A stretch of DNA of 46,398 bases from an uncultured Gammaproteobacteria bacterium (GCA_964360835.1 CAYHYG010000005.1:1-46398), one strand, 5' to 3'; counted from the first letter of the stretch, positions 3,247 to 34,839 are shown. Notes: generated from the letters alone by a model not told the origin. Translations and numbers: made by a program.

Positions 3247-4637
3247 GTGGTTTAAACGTTGTTTATATATGTTCAAAATGCGACGCTCAGGCGCCTAAAT
3301 GGTCCGGGCGCTGTTTTGAATGTGGGAGTTGGGGGACGTTAGAAGCACAAAGCTCAAAAGTCTCCACCAGAGGCGGATCCGCCTCTGGTGGAAAAGGTCA
3401 AAGTGACAGGGTGAAAGTTAAAAATAAGGCGAAGTCAAATATTCCGACGGGAAGTGTGATGACGTTTGAGGATTTGCAAGGAACCAACATTGAGAGAATT
3501 AAGGTCGGTCAATCACCGGCTGTAGAAATTTTCCCTTCAGGTATTCCTCTGGGCAGCTTGACCTTATTGGCTGGTGAGCCGGGAGCTGGTAAATCAACTT
3601 TGGCGCTGCAGCTGGCTTTGCAGTTTTCTAGTCAGTATCAAGTAATTTATTTTTCTTCGGAGGAATCTCCACTGCAAGTCAAAGAAAAGGTTACTCGTCT
3701 AGGCGCGCCTTCTGGTAATTTTCTTTTTTCAGCTGAGCATAACACAGAGATTATTGCCGCTACTATTGCTCATCACCAGCCAAAGTTGGTAGTGATCGAT
3801 TCTATTCAGACGATCATGGTGCCAGAGGTTGAGGCTGAGCCGAGTAGTCTAGCCCAGCTGAAGGCAGCGACGGCCACACTGATGGAAATAGCCAAAGAGC
3901 AGAATGTAGCTGTCATTATCATTGGTCACGTGACCAAAGAAGGTGTAGTAGCCGGACCAAAAACCCTAGAGCATCTGGTAGATGTTGTTTTCTATCTAGA
4001 AGGCGAGCGTGATAGCCGCTTCCGAATCTTGCGCAGTAGCAAGAATCGTTATGGCCAGTCAGGCAAAGTTTCTGTTTTACAAATGAGTGACAAAGGTTTG
4101 CATATTGTGCGGCAGGCGGCTACGGCCTTCATTAGCAATTATCAACCGAAACCGGGCTCTGTCATCACCGCGGTTGTCGATAGCGGACAAGTTTTTTTCC
4201 TTGAAGTCCAGTCACTGGTGACGGCGAGCAATTATGGTTATCCACGCCGGGCGGCTTCTGGCTTTCCGCCTAAACGTCTGGAGGTCCTATTGGCCGTGAT
4301 GAAGAAACGTCTGGATCTGGATTTTGATCGTTTCGATGTCTATGTCAATCTAGTCGGCGGTTTCCGTAGTAGCGATCCGGCATTGGATCTGGCTGTTTGT
4401 CTATCTCTAATCTCCAGTATAAAAAATAAAGTTTTGAGTCCGGAAACGGTGATTTTCGGAGAAGTAGGTTTGACGGGAGAATTAAGACTGGTCAAAGAAA
4501 CTCAACTGCGTTTGGAAGAAAGCGGCAAGCACAGTTTCAAAAAGATTATTACTTCGCCGCTCAAGAATTCCACAAACAAAAGCATAGTCGGTTTATCTGA
4601 CTTAGCGGCGGTGATAGAGCATCTAGGGTGGCTTTAA
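3243..4637 (+). CDS. radA: DNA repair protein RadA/Sms
   Basis: CSKC...CFEC zinc finger, GEPGAGKST, KNRYG motif, Lon-like C-terminus GEVGLTGE. Confidence 0.97.
   Translation: MSGLNVVYICSKCDAQAPKWSGRCFECGSWGTLEAQSSKVSTRGGSASGGKGQSDRVKVKNKAKSNIPTGSVMTFEDLQGTNIERIKVGQSPAVEIFPSGIPLGSLTLLAGEPGAGKSTLALQLALQFSSQYQVIYFSSEESPLQVKEKVTRLGAPSGNFLFSAEHNTEIIAATIAHHQPKLVVIDSIQTIMVPEVEAEPSSLAQLKAATATLMEIAKEQNVAVIIIGHVTKEGVVAGPKTLEHLVDVVFYLEGERDSRFRILRSSKNRYGQSGKVSVLQMSDKGLHIVRQAATAFISNYQPKPGSVITAVVDSGQVFFLEVQSLVTASNYGYPRRAASGFPPKRLEVLLAVMKKRLDLDFDRFDVYVNLVGGFRSSDPALDLAVCLSLISSIKNKVLSPETVIFGEVGLTGELRLVKETQLRLEESGKHSFKKIITSPLKNSTNKSIVGLSDLAAVIEHLGWL
3363..3392. repeat. 30-bp perfect palindrome inserted in frame in radA
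   Basis: TCCACCAGAGGCGGA|TCCGCCTCTGGTGGA, encodes STRGGSASGG. Confidence 0.9.
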
Positions 4638-4648
4638 AATTCCAAAAG

Positions 4649-4730
4649 CTATATTCTCGAACAAAGTGAGGGATCTCAAAGGCTGCCCAGTTAGTGAGAT
4701 TTCTCCTCACTCCATTCGTCGAAAATATAG
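4649..4730. repeat. Degenerate REP-like palindromic element
   Basis: CTATATT..CGA..AGTGAGGGATCTC ... GAGATTTCTCCTCACT..TCG..AATATAG imperfect hairpin just after radA. Confidence 0.6.
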
Positions 4731-4838
4731 GTACGGATTTAATCTCATACCATTTGATCTTTGCAATTTAAGTTTTTACTTTCTATTACTCCCTGTTGAC
4801 AAAAATAATCGCTATGCTACGTTAAAGAGGTACTATCT

Positions 4839-11452: not shown

Positions 11453-11701
11453 TTATTTTCCCCAACGCCAGCGTGGTGGCTCACCTTTAGCGTAGCTAAC
11501 GGCTATGAGAATAGCGGTGAGCACTATCATACGAGGTACAAATTTTAATAAGGTATCACTGCCAGAGTGCGAGCCGTTATCATCCCAGCTGAAACCCACA
11601 ACGATAGCCACGAGATATAGCAAGATGACGAGCCAGCCTTGCCAAGTGGCCGGATACCAACCCCAACCATAATTTTTGGCTTTGAACCAGACTTTTTTCA
11701 T
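11453..11701 (-). CDS. Small membrane protein
   Basis: WFKAKNYGWGWYPATWQGW, two TM segments, KGEPPRWRWG; TACAAT-6 nt-ATG start. Confidence 0.8.
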   Translation of the reverse strand: MKKVWFKAKNYGWGWYPATWQGWLVILLYLVAIVVGFSWDDNGSHSGSDTLLKFVPRMIVLTAILIAVSYAKGEPPRWRWGK

Positions 11702-12177
11702 AGTCTGATTGTAGTGCATTGCGCGGATGATGTAAATTGATTCAAAGGTAGAATGTATAAGGTATAAAATATGAACTAGTTACTTCGATAGAGAGTTTAT
11801 TCCTGCGGGCCGTCCTGTTATATTCTCATTGGCACTGGCACTATGAGACAGTCTAAAACAATGATTGACCGAGAGTACGCTCCCGTGAAAGAGTTTAGCG
11901 ATTTGTTTTACTGGGATCGGTTTGACCCAACACCAGAGTAAGGCCTATAATGTTCTTAAAGATAGTTTGCAGCTAGCTTACCCTAGAATATGTCCTTGTT
12001 AAATCTCAAAAAAGATGTTACAAATCGCCTACAAACATTGATGACGTGGGTACTTAATCGGGAGGCACCTCAAGGACTTTTTTGCGCTGATAGAGGCAAG
12101 GGTGTATTACTGACATATAACCAAATTTAAGAAAAGGTACCTGATCCCTTTTATGATTTGGAATATAAACAAAAACA

Positions 12178-29855: not shown

Positions 29856-30119
29856 TTATTTACGTTTTAATTTATAAACTTTGAGCATTTCTTTGACGGC
29901 CGTAGCGGTATCGCCTTGCTTCACTTGTTTGACCACGCAACTACTTAAATGTTGTTCCAGTAGGGAGTCTTCGATATTGGACAAGGCCTGCTTAGCGGCA
30001 GATGTCTGGGTAATAATATCGATACAATAGGTGCCCTCTTGTATCATATGTTGTAGACCACGGATCTGGCCTTCAATAATCTTGAGACGGCGGATCAATG
30101 GCTGAGATGAATGTTTCAT
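29856..30119 (-). CDS. csoR: CsoR/RcnR-family metal-sensing repressor
   Basis: RRLKIIEGQIRG, YCIDIITQ, HLSSC (Cys-His-Cys ligands). Confidence 0.93.
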   Translation of the reverse strand: MKHSSQPLIRRLKIIEGQIRGLQHMIQEGTYCIDIITQTSAAKQALSNIEDSLLEQHLSSCVVKQVKQGDTATAVKEMLKVYKLKRK

Positions 30120-30125
30120 GGAATC

Positions 30126-30153
30126 ATTATACCCCCTAGGGGGTATCTGTCAA
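30126..30153 (-). promoter_or_regulatory. Sigma70 promoter with CsoR operator in the spacer
   Basis: Minus strand TTGACA-16 nt-TATAAT-6 nt-ATG; perfect palindrome ATACCCCCTAGGGGGTAT at 30129-30146. Confidence 0.9.
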
Positions 30154-30304
30154 TAGTGGTTTCGCAGTATCATATAGCTGTTATTTTTTGGCGAAGCGAA
30201 TAAAGTGACCAGAGACAGAAGGGCCGCTTAGTGTTATCCTTAATGTAAGGGGTCATGGCCTACCCCGTCATAGTATAGGCTTTCTAATTCTTTAAAATAA
30301 ATGT

Positions 30305-30736
30305 ATGGCAATTGAAATTCCTCGTCAGGAATCAGTATTACCCCCGGATTCTACGGGTAGCCCCACTATTGGCGCTAAGCCAGTTAACGCCGAAGCTGTG
30401 GTCGGTCCTATCCGCCGCCGTTTTCGTGGTTCACAAATAATCTGGTATGTTTTGGGCTTTATTGAAATTATTTTGGCTTTGCGTTTTTTCTTGCTTTTCA
30501 TCGGAGCCAATGTGAGTGCCGGTTTTACCCAATTTATCTATACCATTTCCGGCCCTGTAGCCAATCCCTTCATGAACGTTGTTGGCTCAGCTCGTATCGA
30601 AAGAAGTGTCTTTGACTGGTCAATTCTCCTGGCTATGGCCATCTATGCCTTGGTGGCCTGGGGAGCCATCAAACTCTTGGTCATGAGCAAGCCAGTGTCT
30701 GATGGAGAGGCCCATGATAAGTTGGACAGCCAATAG
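30305..30736 (+). CDS. YggT-like membrane protein
   Basis: IIWYVLGFIEIILALRFFL..GAN..GFTQFIY.ISGP..NPF, LLAMAIYAL. Confidence 0.75.
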   Translation: MAIEIPRQESVLPPDSTGSPTIGAKPVNAEAVVGPIRRRFRGSQIIWYVLGFIEIILALRFFLLFIGANVSAGFTQFIYTISGPVANPFMNVVGSARIERSVFDWSILLAMAIYALVAWGAIKLLVMSKPVSDGEAHDKLDSQ

Positions 30737-31222
30737 GAGAAAGTTAAACGTCAAAAGGCAAAGTTCAAAATTACAACTCAAAATTTAAATTTGGAATTTT
30801 TAAGAGGCGAGCAGTCCTGACGTGATGTCAGCTTGTTCTCCTCTTTTTGGGATGCTGGCTTTGGATTCGTTGAAGCCGATGGGGATTAGCTACTCTAATG
30901 TACTCTCCAGGATACCAGATCCTAGCTTCCTGGGAGGGCACAGCACACATAGTCTCATAGCTAACCCTTTGCATACATTGACAATACAGTTTTACATTTA
31001 TGCCATCTAACGTTTGCGGATATGAGAAGTTGCTGCCTTGTTCCGACGGTACAATATTACCACCGCCGGAATGAAGCAGTAATTTGGAAGGAGGAAATCG
31101 GGTTTGGGTATATTATGTATTGACAAAATCGCAAATCTAGCGCAGGGTAATTTTGTGCTATTCGTTGACAGTGCGACTCGTCGACTTCTCAGAGGAGCTG
31201 GTCGGTTTTCTAAGGAGGATGT

Positions 31223-31720
31223 ATGGAAACCATTCGGGCATTGGTTGCTGAAGCAGAAAAGCAGCGGGCAGCGGTTAAAAGGTTGATGTCAGAGCTGCAA
31301 GCAGAGCAACCGGAATTTCAACATCTCTTTCAGCTAGCGACTGAGACACGGACCTTGGTCATTGCTATTCGGAAGGATATAGCTCAAATGCTACTTGAAA
31401 TGGCGTCCGCAATGAACATCCATCAAGTAGGGGGAGCTGTACTTCATCTCGATCGTCCGGAATACACATTACTTCTACACCCTCAGTGCATTGAGAGTGT
31501 ACAGAAGACCGTAACTGTGGAGGGACTGGCGAACGACAGTTACTGGGAATGTGTCGTGGGGAACTTGATCACAGACATACGAAACGAAGTTCTCCACGTT
31601 GGAACGATGCAAACTGAGGTTGCAAGGGAGCTCGGACGAATTCTAGAGTTACAGAAGCAACTTCAGGGGATCAGAGAGGTAAAACTTGGACCTAGTGCTG
31701 AACCTTCACGATCATCGTGA
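31223..31720 (+). CDS. Hypothetical coiled-coil protein (ORFan cassette)
   Basis: TTGACA at 31120, SD TAAGGAGG, terminator at 31725-31763. Confidence 0.8.
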   Translation: METIRALVAEAEKQRAAVKRLMSELQAEQPEFQHLFQLATETRTLVIAIRKDIAQMLLEMASAMNIHQVGGAVLHLDRPEYTLLLHPQCIESVQKTVTVEGLANDSYWECVVGNLITDIRNEVLHVGTMQTEVARELGRILELQKQLQGIREVKLGPSAEPSRSS

Positions 31721-31724
31721 TCGT

Positions 31725-31763
31725 AACCCCCGCAAGGACATCTATGCCTTCCGGGGGTTTTTT
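31725..31763 (+). terminator. Intrinsic terminator
   Basis: AACCCCCG-C-AAGG...CCTT-C-CGGGGGTT plus T-tract. Confidence 0.8.
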
Positions 31764-31949
31764 ATTTGAATATTCGGAACCAAACCCGATTTCCTCTGTC
31801 TCATATCCGTTGTTGTACGCCATTCGCCCGTCTTTCTATAAAGCAAATTCCCTTTTTAAAAATAGCAGGAGAAATTTATATATTAAAAGACCCGGGGCTC
31901 GTTTCGCAAGACTGTAGTCTTGGAATTGAGCGCACCCGGGTAAAGGCCC

Positions 31950-32066
31950 TTATCCGATGATGGCGTAACCCAACACCAGAAGAAAGGCCACGAGGGTAAA
32001 CAGGACTGCCTTACCCCCGTTCTTCACGATGACGAACAACATGCAATCGATCAGAGCACCTTTCAT
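31950..32066 (-). CDS. 38-aa hydrophobic peptide (not in ORF track)
   Basis: SD GAAAGGA; MKGALIDCMLFVIVKNGGKAVLFTLVAFLLVLGYAIIG*. Confidence 0.55.
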   Translation of the reverse strand: MKGALIDCMLFVIVKNGGKAVLFTLVAFLLVLGYAIIG

Positions 32067-32092
32067 GACAGTATTCCTTTCGGAAGATAGAG

Positions 32093-32287
32093 TTAGTTGC
32101 GTGTGGTGAGCTTAGCCGCGAGGAACGCACTACCGAAGAGATTGATGGCGATACCCGTCATGAACCCCGTGATGAAGAGGGCGTCTCTGAGCAGATTGCC
32201 ATTCGACCGGAAGTTGTCCGCCACCAAGCATTCGAGCGCACCGACGGTTATGAACAGACTGAGGAAAATAACGATGGTCTTATTCAT
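32093..32287 (-). CDS. 64-aa two-TM small protein
   Basis: SD AAGGGAG; minus-strand promoter TTGACA(32402)-17-TATTAT; two hydrophobic segments. Confidence 0.65.
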   Translation of the reverse strand: MNKTIVIFLSLFITVGALECLVADNFRSNGNLLRDALFITGFMTGIAINLFGSAFLAAKLTTRN

Positions 32288-32474
32288 GACTTCTCCCTTG
32301 TTGAGGTTTTGGCGCTATTTAAAGGCCTGTGTTTCAGAAAAACTGTCAAAGTTAATGTACTGTATATATCTATATAATAACATATTATCTTTATATTGTC
32401 AAGTGATAACATTATTATTACCTAATATTAGCCATTTATCCTGCTTTCTAAAAAATAAATATATACTTGATTTA

Positions 32475-32895
32475 AAGAATGGGCGAACAGCACACAACAC
32501 CGAGTATGCGGTTCGCCTGCTTGTAGTCTGTTCATTGGTTTGAGTTTTTGAAAATAAACCTCTTTTAATACACTGCTCAGGCATGCTTCAAGGAGGCAGT
32601 CTCTCCTACATTCCCTCCTTACACTACTGGTGGGGCGCGCGAAGCTATCCTTGCGTCAGCTTCTTTGGCGCGCTATCCTACCAGTAGTGTCGCGTCGGGA
32701 ACGTCGCATACGCTGGCCAGTTAGACGATGCGAAGCAAGCGGAATTTCGTCTAACTGACAGATTCCGATCACCTGACCGAAAGAATGACGTGCTCATTGG
32801 AAAGGCTTTTCAGTAGGGGAATTTTTCCTTCTCTTGACTCAGTCGCCAGTCTTGGCCTGCGTCTTCATGTTGTCTCCTTGGTGGAAGTAGTTAGC
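32475..32895 (-). ncRNA. Candidate structured non-coding RNA (unassigned)
   Basis: GC-rich intergenic tract with perfect 11-bp stems (32621-32690, 32718-32757), upstream TTGACA-17-TAGGGT and a downstream hairpin. Confidence 0.4.
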
Positions 32896-33036
32896 TAGAA
32901 CCCTATATTTGAAAGCAAAAAATGTCAATATTGAAGCTAAGACTAGACAGGAGGAAGATTTTCAGGTATAGTTTTGCTGGTTAAAGATACTGGTTAGTAT
33001 AACTTTTCTTGGGCCTGAGACAGGCCTTTTATATAT

Positions 33037-34839
33037 ATGTCCGAACAAATCCGTAACATAGCTATTATTGCTCACGTTGACCATGGTAAGACTACCTTAG
33101 TTGATGCGCTTTTACGTCAATCAGAAAAGTTTACCACTAAGGTTCAGGATGATTTGATTATGGACTCCAATGAATTGGAGCGAGAGCGTGGTATTACAAT
33201 ATTCTCCAAGAATGCGGCTGTAGCTTACAAAGGGTACAAGATTAACATTGTTGATACTCCGGGGCATGCTGATTTCGGTGGAGAAGTAGAACGCATTATG
33301 AGTTTGGTTGATGGTGTTCTTTTGCTTGTTGATGCCAAAGATGGTCCTATGCCTCAGACAAAATTTGTCTTGAGCAAAGCCTTGCAGGCAGGCCATAAGG
33401 TTATCGTTGTTATTAACAAGATTGATTTACCGGAAGCACGAGCACAGTGGGTATTAAATCAGACTTTTGATTTATTCGTAGAGCTCGGAGCCACTGATGC
33501 GCAAGTGGAGTTTCCTGTTATTTATGCTTCAGCAGTAGCTGGTAAAGCGGGTTTGGAACCCCATATGGACAAAATGACTGATGTTCAGCCAGTTTTCGAT
33601 GCCGTAATTGAGCATATCCCAGCACCTCACGTGGTGGAAGGTTCAATGCAGATGTTAGTTGTAAATATCGCCTATGATAGTTTCAAAGGGCAGATTGCTA
33701 TCGGCCGCTTGTTAAGCGGCAGTCTGGTCAAAGGACAGACGGTGGCTTTACTGAAACCTGATGGCACAAAGGTGCAGAACAAGATTACAGCTGTCATGAT
33801 TTTTGACGGTCTTAGTCGTCGTGAAGTTGATCAGACTGACGCCGGCGATGTCATCGCTGTAGCCGGAGTAGAGAATATTCGTATCGGTGATACTATCGCT
33901 GATGCCCAAGACCCTCGACCGTTGCCAGCGATTGTGATTGAAGAACCGACGGTTAAAATGAATTTTGCCGTTAACAACTCTCCTTTTTACGGTCAGGAAG
34001 GAACGTTTCAAACCGCGCGACATTTGAAGGAACGCTTGATGAGAGAACTGCTCAATGATGTAGCTTTGCGGGTGGAACCGTCAGAAGACACTGATTCAGC
34101 TTTCACCGTCTCAGGACGTGGTGAGTTGCATTTGTCTATCCTGATTGAAAAAATGCGTCGCGAAGGTTTTGAGTTTCAGGTTTCCAAGCCTCAAGTAATT
34201 TTCAAAGAAGTAGATGGTCAAAAGATGGAGCCATTCGAGGAAGTATTCATCGAAGCTCCAGAGAACGCCAGCGGCACCGTTATAGAAAAAATGAGCAAGC
34301 GTAAAGGTTTGATGAAAAATATGAAGGTTGATCGTAGCCAAGCGCATTTGCACTTCGTGGTGCCCACCCGTGGTCTCATTGGCTATCGTTCGGAATTTTT
34401 GACCGATACCAAGGGTCAGGGTATTATTAACACCTTGTTTCACGGCTATGAAGCGTATAGTGGCGATCTGGAATCAACTAACAAAGGTTCCTTGATTGCC
34501 TTTGAAACTGGAACTAGTAATCTCTACGGATTGCTAGGGGCGCAGGAGCGGGGACAATTATTTATCGGACCGGCAGTCAAGGTTTACGAAGGTATGATTG
34601 TTGGCAAAAATTCCCGCTCGGAAGATCTTGAAGTCAATGTATGCAAAACCAAGCAATTATCCAATATGCGTTCTAAAGGGGACGGTAAAGCTGACCATTT
34701 TGATACACCGCTCAGTCTGAGTCTGGAAGAAGCCATAGAATACATCGGTGATGATGAATTATTGGAAGTAACTCCACAGAGTTTGCGTCTGCGCAAGACT
34801 ATCCTGAACTCTCTCCAACGAAAACGTCAGAAATCTTAG
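33037..34839 (+). CDS. typA: Translational GTPase TypA/BipA
   Basis: [50 protein letters not shown]. Confidence 0.98.

Follow-up and report, generated by a model that had tools for sequence, protein, structure and literature searches.

The element described here lies at positions 31005-31818 of a 46,398-base contig (C5, called the window below, meaning the whole stretch of DNA that was analysed) of the assembly GCA_964360835.1. This genome, designated G000, was recovered from groundwater metagenomes and comprises 971,834 bases in 50 contigs, with a completeness of 97.6%. The element is interpreted, with a probability of about 60%, as an attC-like recombination site of an integron-like cassette system, in which the second-hairpin region has grown to 672 nt and accommodates a gene, an open reading frame (ORF) for 165 amino acids (aa) termed ORF165. 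This interpretation is supported by the anatomy of the element, by its homology to the other sites of a family, by the recurrence of the same design in related genomes and by the predicted folding.

Anatomy of the element

An earlier note on this DNA, made from the sequence alone, had reported two nested pairs of perfect inverted repeats around a 165-aa ORFan, and both pairs were recovered as claimed. The arms of the 17-nt repeat (31091-31107/31780-31796) are 100% complementary and 672 nt apart, and those of the 11-nt repeat (31017-31027/31799-31809), also 100% complementary, are 771 nt apart. The two repeats are separated by 63 nt on the left side and by 2 nt on the right, and a gapped alignment extends the pairing inward with GTATATT/GAATATT. 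Only six inverted repeats that are perfect over at least 17 bp, with arms 30-3000 nt apart, occur in the 971,834 bases of the genome; none was found in any of three block shuffles, where the longest reached 16 bp. When the coding-like ORFs of the genome (n = 1068) were ranked by the inverted repeat joining the regions of their start and stop, ORF165 came second. Both the 17-mer of the inner arm, its partner aside, and the full 11-mer are single-copy in G000. From core to core the element spans 814 nt, with the ORF inside its loop, and its parts are as follows.

31005..31011, +, R''-like core ATCTAAC, which fits RYYYAAC and aligns with the invariant AAC in the profile's R'' box
31012..31016, +, spacer GTTTG separating R'' from L'', 5 nt long as in 18 aligned attC-like sites
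31017..31027, +, L'' arm CGGATATGAGA, pairing with 31799-31809 and aligning on the L'' box G..TAT..GA.GTT
31028..31090, +, 63-nt hairpin 1 with the loop GGTACAAT, followed by the motif AATTTGG; present on the left side only, a local stem-loop in both the minimum free energy (MFE) and the centroid structure
31091..31107, +, 5' arm of the private closing stem, GAGGAAATCGGGTTTGG, 17 nt, 100% complementary
31212..31218, +, Shine-Dalgarno (SD) sequence AAGGAGG, 4 nt ahead of the ATG
31223..31720, +, ORF165, the payload gene, an ORFan of 165 aa, predicted to be helical
31725..31769, +, intrinsic-terminator-like hairpin within the loop, a 13-bp stem followed by the T run TTTTTTATTT
31780..31796, +, 3' arm of the private closing stem, CCAAACCCGATTTCCTC, pairing with 31091-31107
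31799..31809, +, L' arm TCTCATATCCG, pairing with 31017-31027
31812..31818, +, R'-like core GTTGTAC, preceded by the 2-nt spacer TT, with one mismatch to GTTRRRY

The SD sequence, the reading frame and the terminator that had been placed between the arms are thus present, the stem of the terminator (31725-31737/31747-31759) being 13 bp long with 92% pairing; a consensus terminator scan did not list this hairpin. The -35 box that had been reported with them was not borne out as a -35/-10 promoter: a promoter scan of the + strand from 30880 to 31222 returned no site upstream of ORF165. The outer cores ATCTAAC and GTTGTAC exist as the note described them, but the match to RYYYAAC/GTTRRRY is by itself at chance level: the window has 31 RYYYAAC motifs and, allowing one mismatch, 588 GTTRRRY motifs, which form 69 pairs 700-900 nt apart. 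At the position of GTTGTAC the R' of the sites in relatives reads GTTGTGC or GTTAGGT, with the GTTGT(A/G)C variant in about half of them.

A family of attC-like sites and the adjoining recombinase

The comparison covered 86 genomes of the same order and drew above all on three from the family of G000 (G003, G008 and G012). In G003, the initial 24.6 kb of contig C1 contain 30 attC-like elements (C1:7 to C1:24601), on one strand throughout, which separate unrelated genes encoded on the opposite strand. Their parts follow one order, namely R'' (ACCTAAC or GTACAAC), 5 nt, L'', about 170-200 nt, L', GT and R' (GTTAGGT or GTTGTGC); ordinary sites of the family measure about 190-240 nt, and the stretch between L'' and L' is made of non-coding hairpins. 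A consensus fold was derived from 18 sites, 17 from G003 and one from the window (32482-32733). In this fold R'' pairs with R' and L'' with L', leaving spacers of 5 nt and 2 nt, and hairpin 1 is formed; compensatory changes are seen in 11 of the 31 pairs, and hairpin 1 co-varies. In G000 a conserved site of the form RCCTAAC-AA-CGGATATCCG-ATTCNCGAGC occurs at C8:9757, C20:796 and C20:4906, and in reversed orientation at C21:11317. Searched as a 21-mer with up to 2 mismatches, the conserved site was found in 4 of the 86 genomes (G000, G003, G012 and G008), all of one family and intergenic in every case, and the reversed control pattern in none of the 86. The carriers of the site family are small-genome groundwater bacteria, probably of the Patescibacteria type, to which the genome size and habitat of G000 point.

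The earlier note had advised looking for an integrase elsewhere in the genome, and a recombinase does stand beside such arrays; it is not of the IntI type. G000 has two tyrosine recombinase genes and one serine recombinase gene, and the one of interest, on contig C21, encodes a Xer-like tyrosine recombinase with its catalytic residues aligned. Its G003 ortholog (54% identity) lies 2.9 kb beyond the array. The gene adjoins the array in G003, in G008 (0.7 kb) and on C21 of G000, in each case on the strand of the sites and with its 5' end toward the array; in G012 its distance to one conserved site is 0.9 kb, and gene and site are on opposite strands. Arrays with an adjoining recombinase have the geometry of an integron. 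Compared with VchIntIA (2a3v), however, the C21 recombinase aligns in two stretches between which it has 20 residues where IntI has 63, about 43 fewer. It scores 209.8 against TIGR02249, below the cut-off of 265, and 230.5 against NF040815 (XerA/integron integrase), where the cut-off is 220; XerA is its best match. Since the IntI-specific insert is missing, the system is regarded as integron-like and not as a classical integron.

The cargo of the arrays is typical of cassettes and includes Fic, HigB/HigA, receiver-domain and LVIVD-repeat proteins. Turnover of modules is seen in G003, where duplicated units (D8, D13) are bordered at R boxes, and the ordinary cassette units of this genome carry private inverted repeats of 23-30 nt, matching at 86-93%, that start at the R boxes.

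Several further features of the arrays were recorded. In the first 18,000 bases of the G003 array (G003:C1, 1-18000) the hairpin 1 loop of most sites has a conserved extended -10-like box, TGnTAnAAT, which points away from the cassette genes; its counterpart in the element under study, GGTACAAT, points toward ORF165. A non-coding element of about 180 bp is present in five copies with 95-100% identity, always within the cassette arrays of G000 (C7:513-694, C7:2236-2417, C20:4027-4208 on the - strand, C21:11581-11777 and C21:12420-12593). It ends in GCATAAC/T, which is the R'' of the next attC-like site, and its last copy stops 78 nt before the recombinase gene. Perfect inverted repeats also occur inside array genes, one of 19 bp in the Fic gene (C20:348-366/745-763) and one of 16 bp in a 171-aa ORF (C8:9242-9257/9616-9631); the end of the Fic protein is specified by a sequence that is the reverse complement of a stretch found earlier in that gene.

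The element as a member of the family

Searched against G000 with nhmmer, the profile of the G003 sites recovered six full sites, one of them in the window (32487-32728, - strand; E-value 3.6e-14, then 1.8e-28). The same profile gave two partial matches to its 5' third, at C20:1464-1537 and at 31001-31075 of the window, the latter being the left end of the element. This end aligns to profile positions 4-68, which correspond to R'', L'' and hairpin 1; hairpin 1 (31028-31090) aligns with the hairpin 1 of relatives, including the invariant GGTA..AT, and the hairpin of the relatives co-varies. The right end, ATATCCG-TT-GTTGTAC, resembles the L'-R' ends of four other G000 sites (C8:9765, C20:804, C20:4914 and C21:11328), all of which have ATATCCG-TT-GTT. 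The 17-mer ATATCCGTTGTTGTACG, which runs across the right L arm and the R' core, has an identical copy at C21:11331-11347. Paralogy between C21:11300-11560 and the right flank in the window beyond this 17-mer was considered and rejected, as the local alignment scored 38 and shuffled sequences 35 on average.

The order of parts in the element is that of the family, from R'' through 5 nt, L'', hairpin 1 (loop GGTAnAAT) and AAT(G/T)T(A/G)G to L', 2 nt and R', and its spacers of 5 and 2 nt show the same asymmetry as the 18 aligned family sites. Joining the arms in silico and scoring the product, as the earlier note had suggested, was done with the family profile. The real arms reached 10.1 bits, and only 3 of 3000 random control joins scored higher, all of them pieces of full sites; the best of the 2997 controls outside true sites reached 6.9 bits. 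Because the left boxes, hairpin 1 and the right L'-TT-R' all align with the family, the element is, by sequence comparison, a complete site of the family in which only the region of the second hairpin has been replaced, by a 17-bp stem around 672 nt. The description of the locus as an attC-like palindrome with a gene inside is upheld as to the profile match of its left end, its L'-R' end, its spacers and its recurrence. The site departs from classical attC in size, in the extrahelical bases and in the IntI-type integrase.

Recurrence of the gene-in-loop design

The same topology, in which L'' and hairpin 1 come first, a payload is enclosed in its private perfect stem and L' begins 2-3 nt after it, was found at three further sites in two other genera, and two looser and two truncated versions (at C8 and at C20:4906) are present in G000 itself.

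G008:C12, ~8873-8060, site with a 20-bp stem around an NYN-domain gene
G003, 11665-12101, site with a 4+12-bp stem around an 85-aa ORF
G003, 4392-4818, site with a 13-bp stem; the ORF is not clear
G000 C21, 10241-11346, looser site with a 9-bp stem and a 263-aa gene
G000 C20, 795-1532, looser site with a 12-bp helix and a 191-aa gene

The private perfect stems range from 13 to 20 bp, and each payload has its own. The gene-in-loop design recurs in three genera. An L box reading CGGATAT was considered as a universal mark of payload-holding sites and was rejected, the G008 site having GCGTATCTGA instead.

Folding and proposed mechanism

Folding with DNA parameters placed the 11-bp and the 17-bp helices in the MFE structure of either strand despite the 672-nt loop. 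In single-stranded DNA (ssDNA) the predicted pair probabilities are 0.95-0.98 for the 11-bp arms and 0.96-0.99 for the 17-bp arms. It has been described that attC sites fold from ssDNA or through cruciform extrusion, in the sections available of the source (PMC8946536).

From the above we infer that the element is recombined, that the stem is needed for this and that ORF165 is carried along, in the following way. The element would become single-stranded as lagging-strand template or as DNA taken up from outside, and the 17-bp stem would then close the gene off in a side loop. The 11-bp L arms could pair thereafter and so restore the hairpin of R boxes, spacers and L boxes, which is the presumed substrate of the Xer-like recombinase encoded on C21. 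ORF165 would travel with the site as a stowaway, independently expressed and oriented against the genes of the neighbouring cassettes. The closing stem would keep the 814-nt site foldable, and the site would work mainly on ssDNA.

A more speculative and rather doubtful extension is that the unit captured and moved in these systems of ultra-small bacteria may be a hairpin with a gene in its loop, a private perfect stem closing off every payload, both those between junction elements and those within one. Such a stem might arise together with the unit, through template switching or hairpin-primed synthesis for example, and might let sites of several hundred bases refold from imported ssDNA. Recombination sites would then serve as gene carriers as well, and the private stems would preserve a trace of cassette birth.

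Variation and searches for other forms

Variant forms of the locus were sought in the assembled contigs of four runs from three studies, where rare variants get dropped. The arrangement is unchanged in these contigs, with 0-1 differences, and contig X3 spans 30079-31845 with 0 differences. Of the two origins that the earlier note had offered, a gene that landed in the apex of the repeat or a mobile unit whose ends pair as ssDNA, neither is demonstrated: the arms are single-copy, empty copies or copies with other cargo were found neither in the genome nor in the contigs, and the excised circles that had been envisaged left no excision joint there, although rare forms may have been dropped. Joints at the arms, strand-changing ones included, were likewise absent from these contigs, in which rare forms may hide. 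In the regular site of the window, contigs of three runs join 32517 to 32705, skipping 187 nt, with 20 nt on one side; these probably derive from other family members.

Beyond these contigs, a scan of genome contigs with the 17-mer gave at least 120 single matches in unrelated taxa, taken as chance, and none with two arms. Among viral contigs the two-arm pattern had no match and the 17-mer one single match, and a distant blastn comparison with phages gave none. No near relative of the locus was present in the collections searched, and a DNA search of 40 relatives returned short motif matches only. A yggT-like neighbour gene is present in 2 of 13 family genomes, with synteny absent, and the 10 loci found in a metagenome scan with the yggT-like protein (33-53% identity) contained neither ORF165 nor the arms. 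Rfam had zero matches to window positions 30700-33060, and no RNA runs containing this stretch of the window were found. Full-text literature searches that paired integrons or attC sites with Patescibacteria, the Candidate Phyla Radiation or Parcubacteria listed unrelated papers alone, and others brought up work on attC structure and on attC-targeting elements; a gene-bearing site of this kind was described in none of the listings.

The payload gene

ORF165 is taken to be a real gene. Its hexamer coding score is +0.160 in frame, against -0.26 to -0.73 in the five other frames; core genes of the genome score 0.41 ± 0.13 and other array genes 0.07-0.29. No match above cut-off was found in Pfam or NCBIfam and no usable match in the Atlas, and a word-index protein search returned the self-match alone. 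A full HMMER search of 1.84 billion representatives gave, besides ORF165 itself, three long repetitive proteins that were judged spurious. The AlphaFold2 single-sequence model has helices at residues 2-64 and 105-154 and, with a mean pLDDT of 57.7, is too poor for a fold search.

Weighing the alternatives

Several observations weigh against reading the element as a working attC-like site. The genome-wide profile match is weak (10.1-10.5 bits, E-value 0.11-0.14) and covers the 5' third only, as the right end by itself is too short for a score. Pairing between the R'' and R' cores is poor, with 3-5 of 7 pairs at a probability of 0.22-0.34. Contig C5 has no recombinase gene, and the only other site on it is inverted, 664 nt away. 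As ORF165 has no relatives among the proteins searched, no second copy of its unit is known. No excised, inverted or payload-free form appears in the contigs of the four runs, which is weak evidence because contigs drop rare variants. Finally, according to the parts available of PMC8946536, long variable structures in the sites of classical integrons cost up to 4 logs of recombination under replicative conditions, and not with single-stranded delivery; an 814-nt site may therefore be nearly inert unless delivered single-stranded.

It is conceivable, though we consider it unlikely, that ORF165 and the 17-bp arms form a separate mobile module that was inserted into the variable loop of an existing attC-like site, the arms being its ends, either as terminal inverted repeats or as halves of a palindromic site of its own. 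The payload occupies a constant position in every payload-holding site, after hairpin 1 and AAT(G/T)T(A/G)G and 2-3 nt before L', which resembles a preferred insertion point, and a distinct perfect stem of 13-20 bp for each payload would arise more easily by copying or insertion than by gradual selection. The private inverted repeats of the G003 cassette units (23-30 nt, 86-93%) fit the same idea, and elements that target attC are known, such as the group IIC-attC introns and IS1111-attC insertion sequences treated in the available part of PMC3001079. Yet the arms are single-copy, with neither a second copy nor an empty target found; ORF165 is unlike any transposase, recombinase or reverse transcriptase; the stems of different payloads share no motif that one enzyme might recognise; and the minimal unoccupied site, R''-5-CGGATATCCG-2-R', is absent from G000 and from the G003 array. 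As to transposon traits at the element itself, the arms are single-copy, no transposase-like ORF is present and the flanks share only a trivial TTG.

Less probable again is that the element is a fossil, the remnant of a decayed cassette array that no longer recombines, whose perfect arms are a recent neutral product of, for example, replication template switching. The poor pairing of the R cores agrees with decay, as do the make-up of the contig, whose sites number just two and face opposite ways and which has a 36-nt empty unit (32722-32757) and lacks a recombinase, and the invariance of the sequence across the runs; a template switch skipping an extruded hairpin would explain why 63 nt separate the two repeats on one side and 2 nt on the other. 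However, the 63-nt insert is not arbitrary, being the family's conserved hairpin 1, correctly placed and oriented, a design with perfect stems in three genera is left unexplained by a one-off mutation, and the genome has an intact recombinase with aligned catalytic residues. That the arms act in some other way, by RNA pairing of the 5' leader with sequence past the ORF165 terminator or as the repeats of an inverton, seems very improbable. Both helices do form in the fold of an 831-nt RNA (z = -7.9 against 20 shuffles), an SD-like GGAGG overlaps the left 17-bp arm, and the genome encodes the three recombinases mentioned above. The right arms, however, lie at least 13 nt past a strong terminator, in the gap between two convergent terminators, so that one transcript would rarely span both arms. 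The real SD sequence (31212-31218) is outside the arms, the contigs of the four runs show no strand-changing joint and C5 has no recombinase gene, and either idea leaves the attC-like homology unexplained.

Neighbouring features

Next to the element lie two further features of cassette type, both on the - strand.

31819..32497, -, neighbouring cassette-type unit with two small ORFs for membrane proteins, at 31950-32066 (38 aa) and 32093-32287 (64 aa)
32482..32733, -, payload-free junction element of the regular attC-like kind, oriented oppositely to the element under study and aligned with 17 G003 sites

The ends of the 31819-32497 unit form an imperfect inverted repeat of about 16 of 22 positions, read by eye. 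Adjoining the regular site, positions 32722-32757 consist of GTTAGACGA, 18 nt and TCGTCTAAC, which make up the 36-nt empty unit with cassette-like bounds (R' ... R''). On the other side of the element, a motif of about 50 nt (30738-30790) stands just 3' of the yggT-like gene; it has copies at C4:41825, C17:18778 and C2:52906, as well as several in G011, G013 and G006, and shows extra contig depth in all four runs. An insertion-sequence-like element is present at C39:3145-4055; its terminal inverted repeats are perfect over 19 bp, and two ORFs share its interrupted transposase-like frame.

Comparison with known systems

Classical attC sites measure about 57-141 nt, and genes are held to lie between them. 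The sites described here resemble those of integrons, among them sedentary chromosomal integrons such as the Vibrio superintegron and clusters of attC sites lacking integrases (CALIN), in being imperfect palindromes with RYYYAAC/GTTRRRY-like cores, L''/L' arms, an unequal unpaired spacer and a variable terminal structure, and in differing in sequence while sharing a fold. The arrays, too, are integron-like, with unrelated small genes, toxin-antitoxin pairs included, placed on the 5' side of the gene for a tyrosine recombinase, with their direction of reading leading away from that gene. Unlike in integrons, the recombinase of the family is short, by some 43 residues, at the integron-specific insert of VchIntIA, and the private inverted repeats of the cassette units reach 16-23 nt past the R box. 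The ordinary sites of the family, at about 190-240 nt, already exceed classical attC; the element moreover has a perfect 11-bp L stem with no bulged or extrahelical base and a variable structure of about 770 nt that contains a gene with its own SD sequence and terminator. The unpaired central spacer (UCS), extrahelical bases (EHB) and variable terminal structure (VTS) are the terms used for attC structure in the portion available of PMC8946536.

Gene-bearing repeats are also known from mobile insertion cassettes and miniature inverted-repeat transposable elements (MITEs), in which a passenger gene lies between the terminal inverted repeats of an insertion sequence. The element is similar in having a gene other than a transposase between perfect inverted repeats, but the genome contains no matching insertion sequence or second copy, the ends of the C39 element are unrelated, and the arms are nested in recombination-site boxes. 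Extra coding DNA inside an attC site is likewise a property of the group IIC-attC introns and of IS1111-attC, as far as the accessible sections of PMC3001079 describe them; these encode a reverse transcriptase or transposase themselves and are multicopy, whereas ORF165 is single-copy and matches no such enzyme. Synthetic attC sites have been embedded in arbitrary sequence, from which it was concluded, in the parts available of Nivina et al. 2020 (PMC7439510), that fold and not sequence defines attC and that coding DNA may overlap it. There the site is designed into a coding sequence, and here a natural site holds a whole gene in its loop.

Significance

A gene that is complete inside the loop of its site, behind a perfect private stem, contrasts with the view that genes lie between attC sites and that recombination is crippled by a long variable loop, and the design is found in three genera beside a recombinase that lacks the domain thought essential for folded attC recognition. 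If the sites are active, structure-specific recombination would tolerate loops of about 0.7 kb, and recombination sites could themselves ferry genes. The private stems, which also flank ordinary G003 cassettes, may record how cassettes are made, an open question for integrons. Taken together, these findings bear on gene flow in minimal-genome bacteria that rely on DNA uptake.

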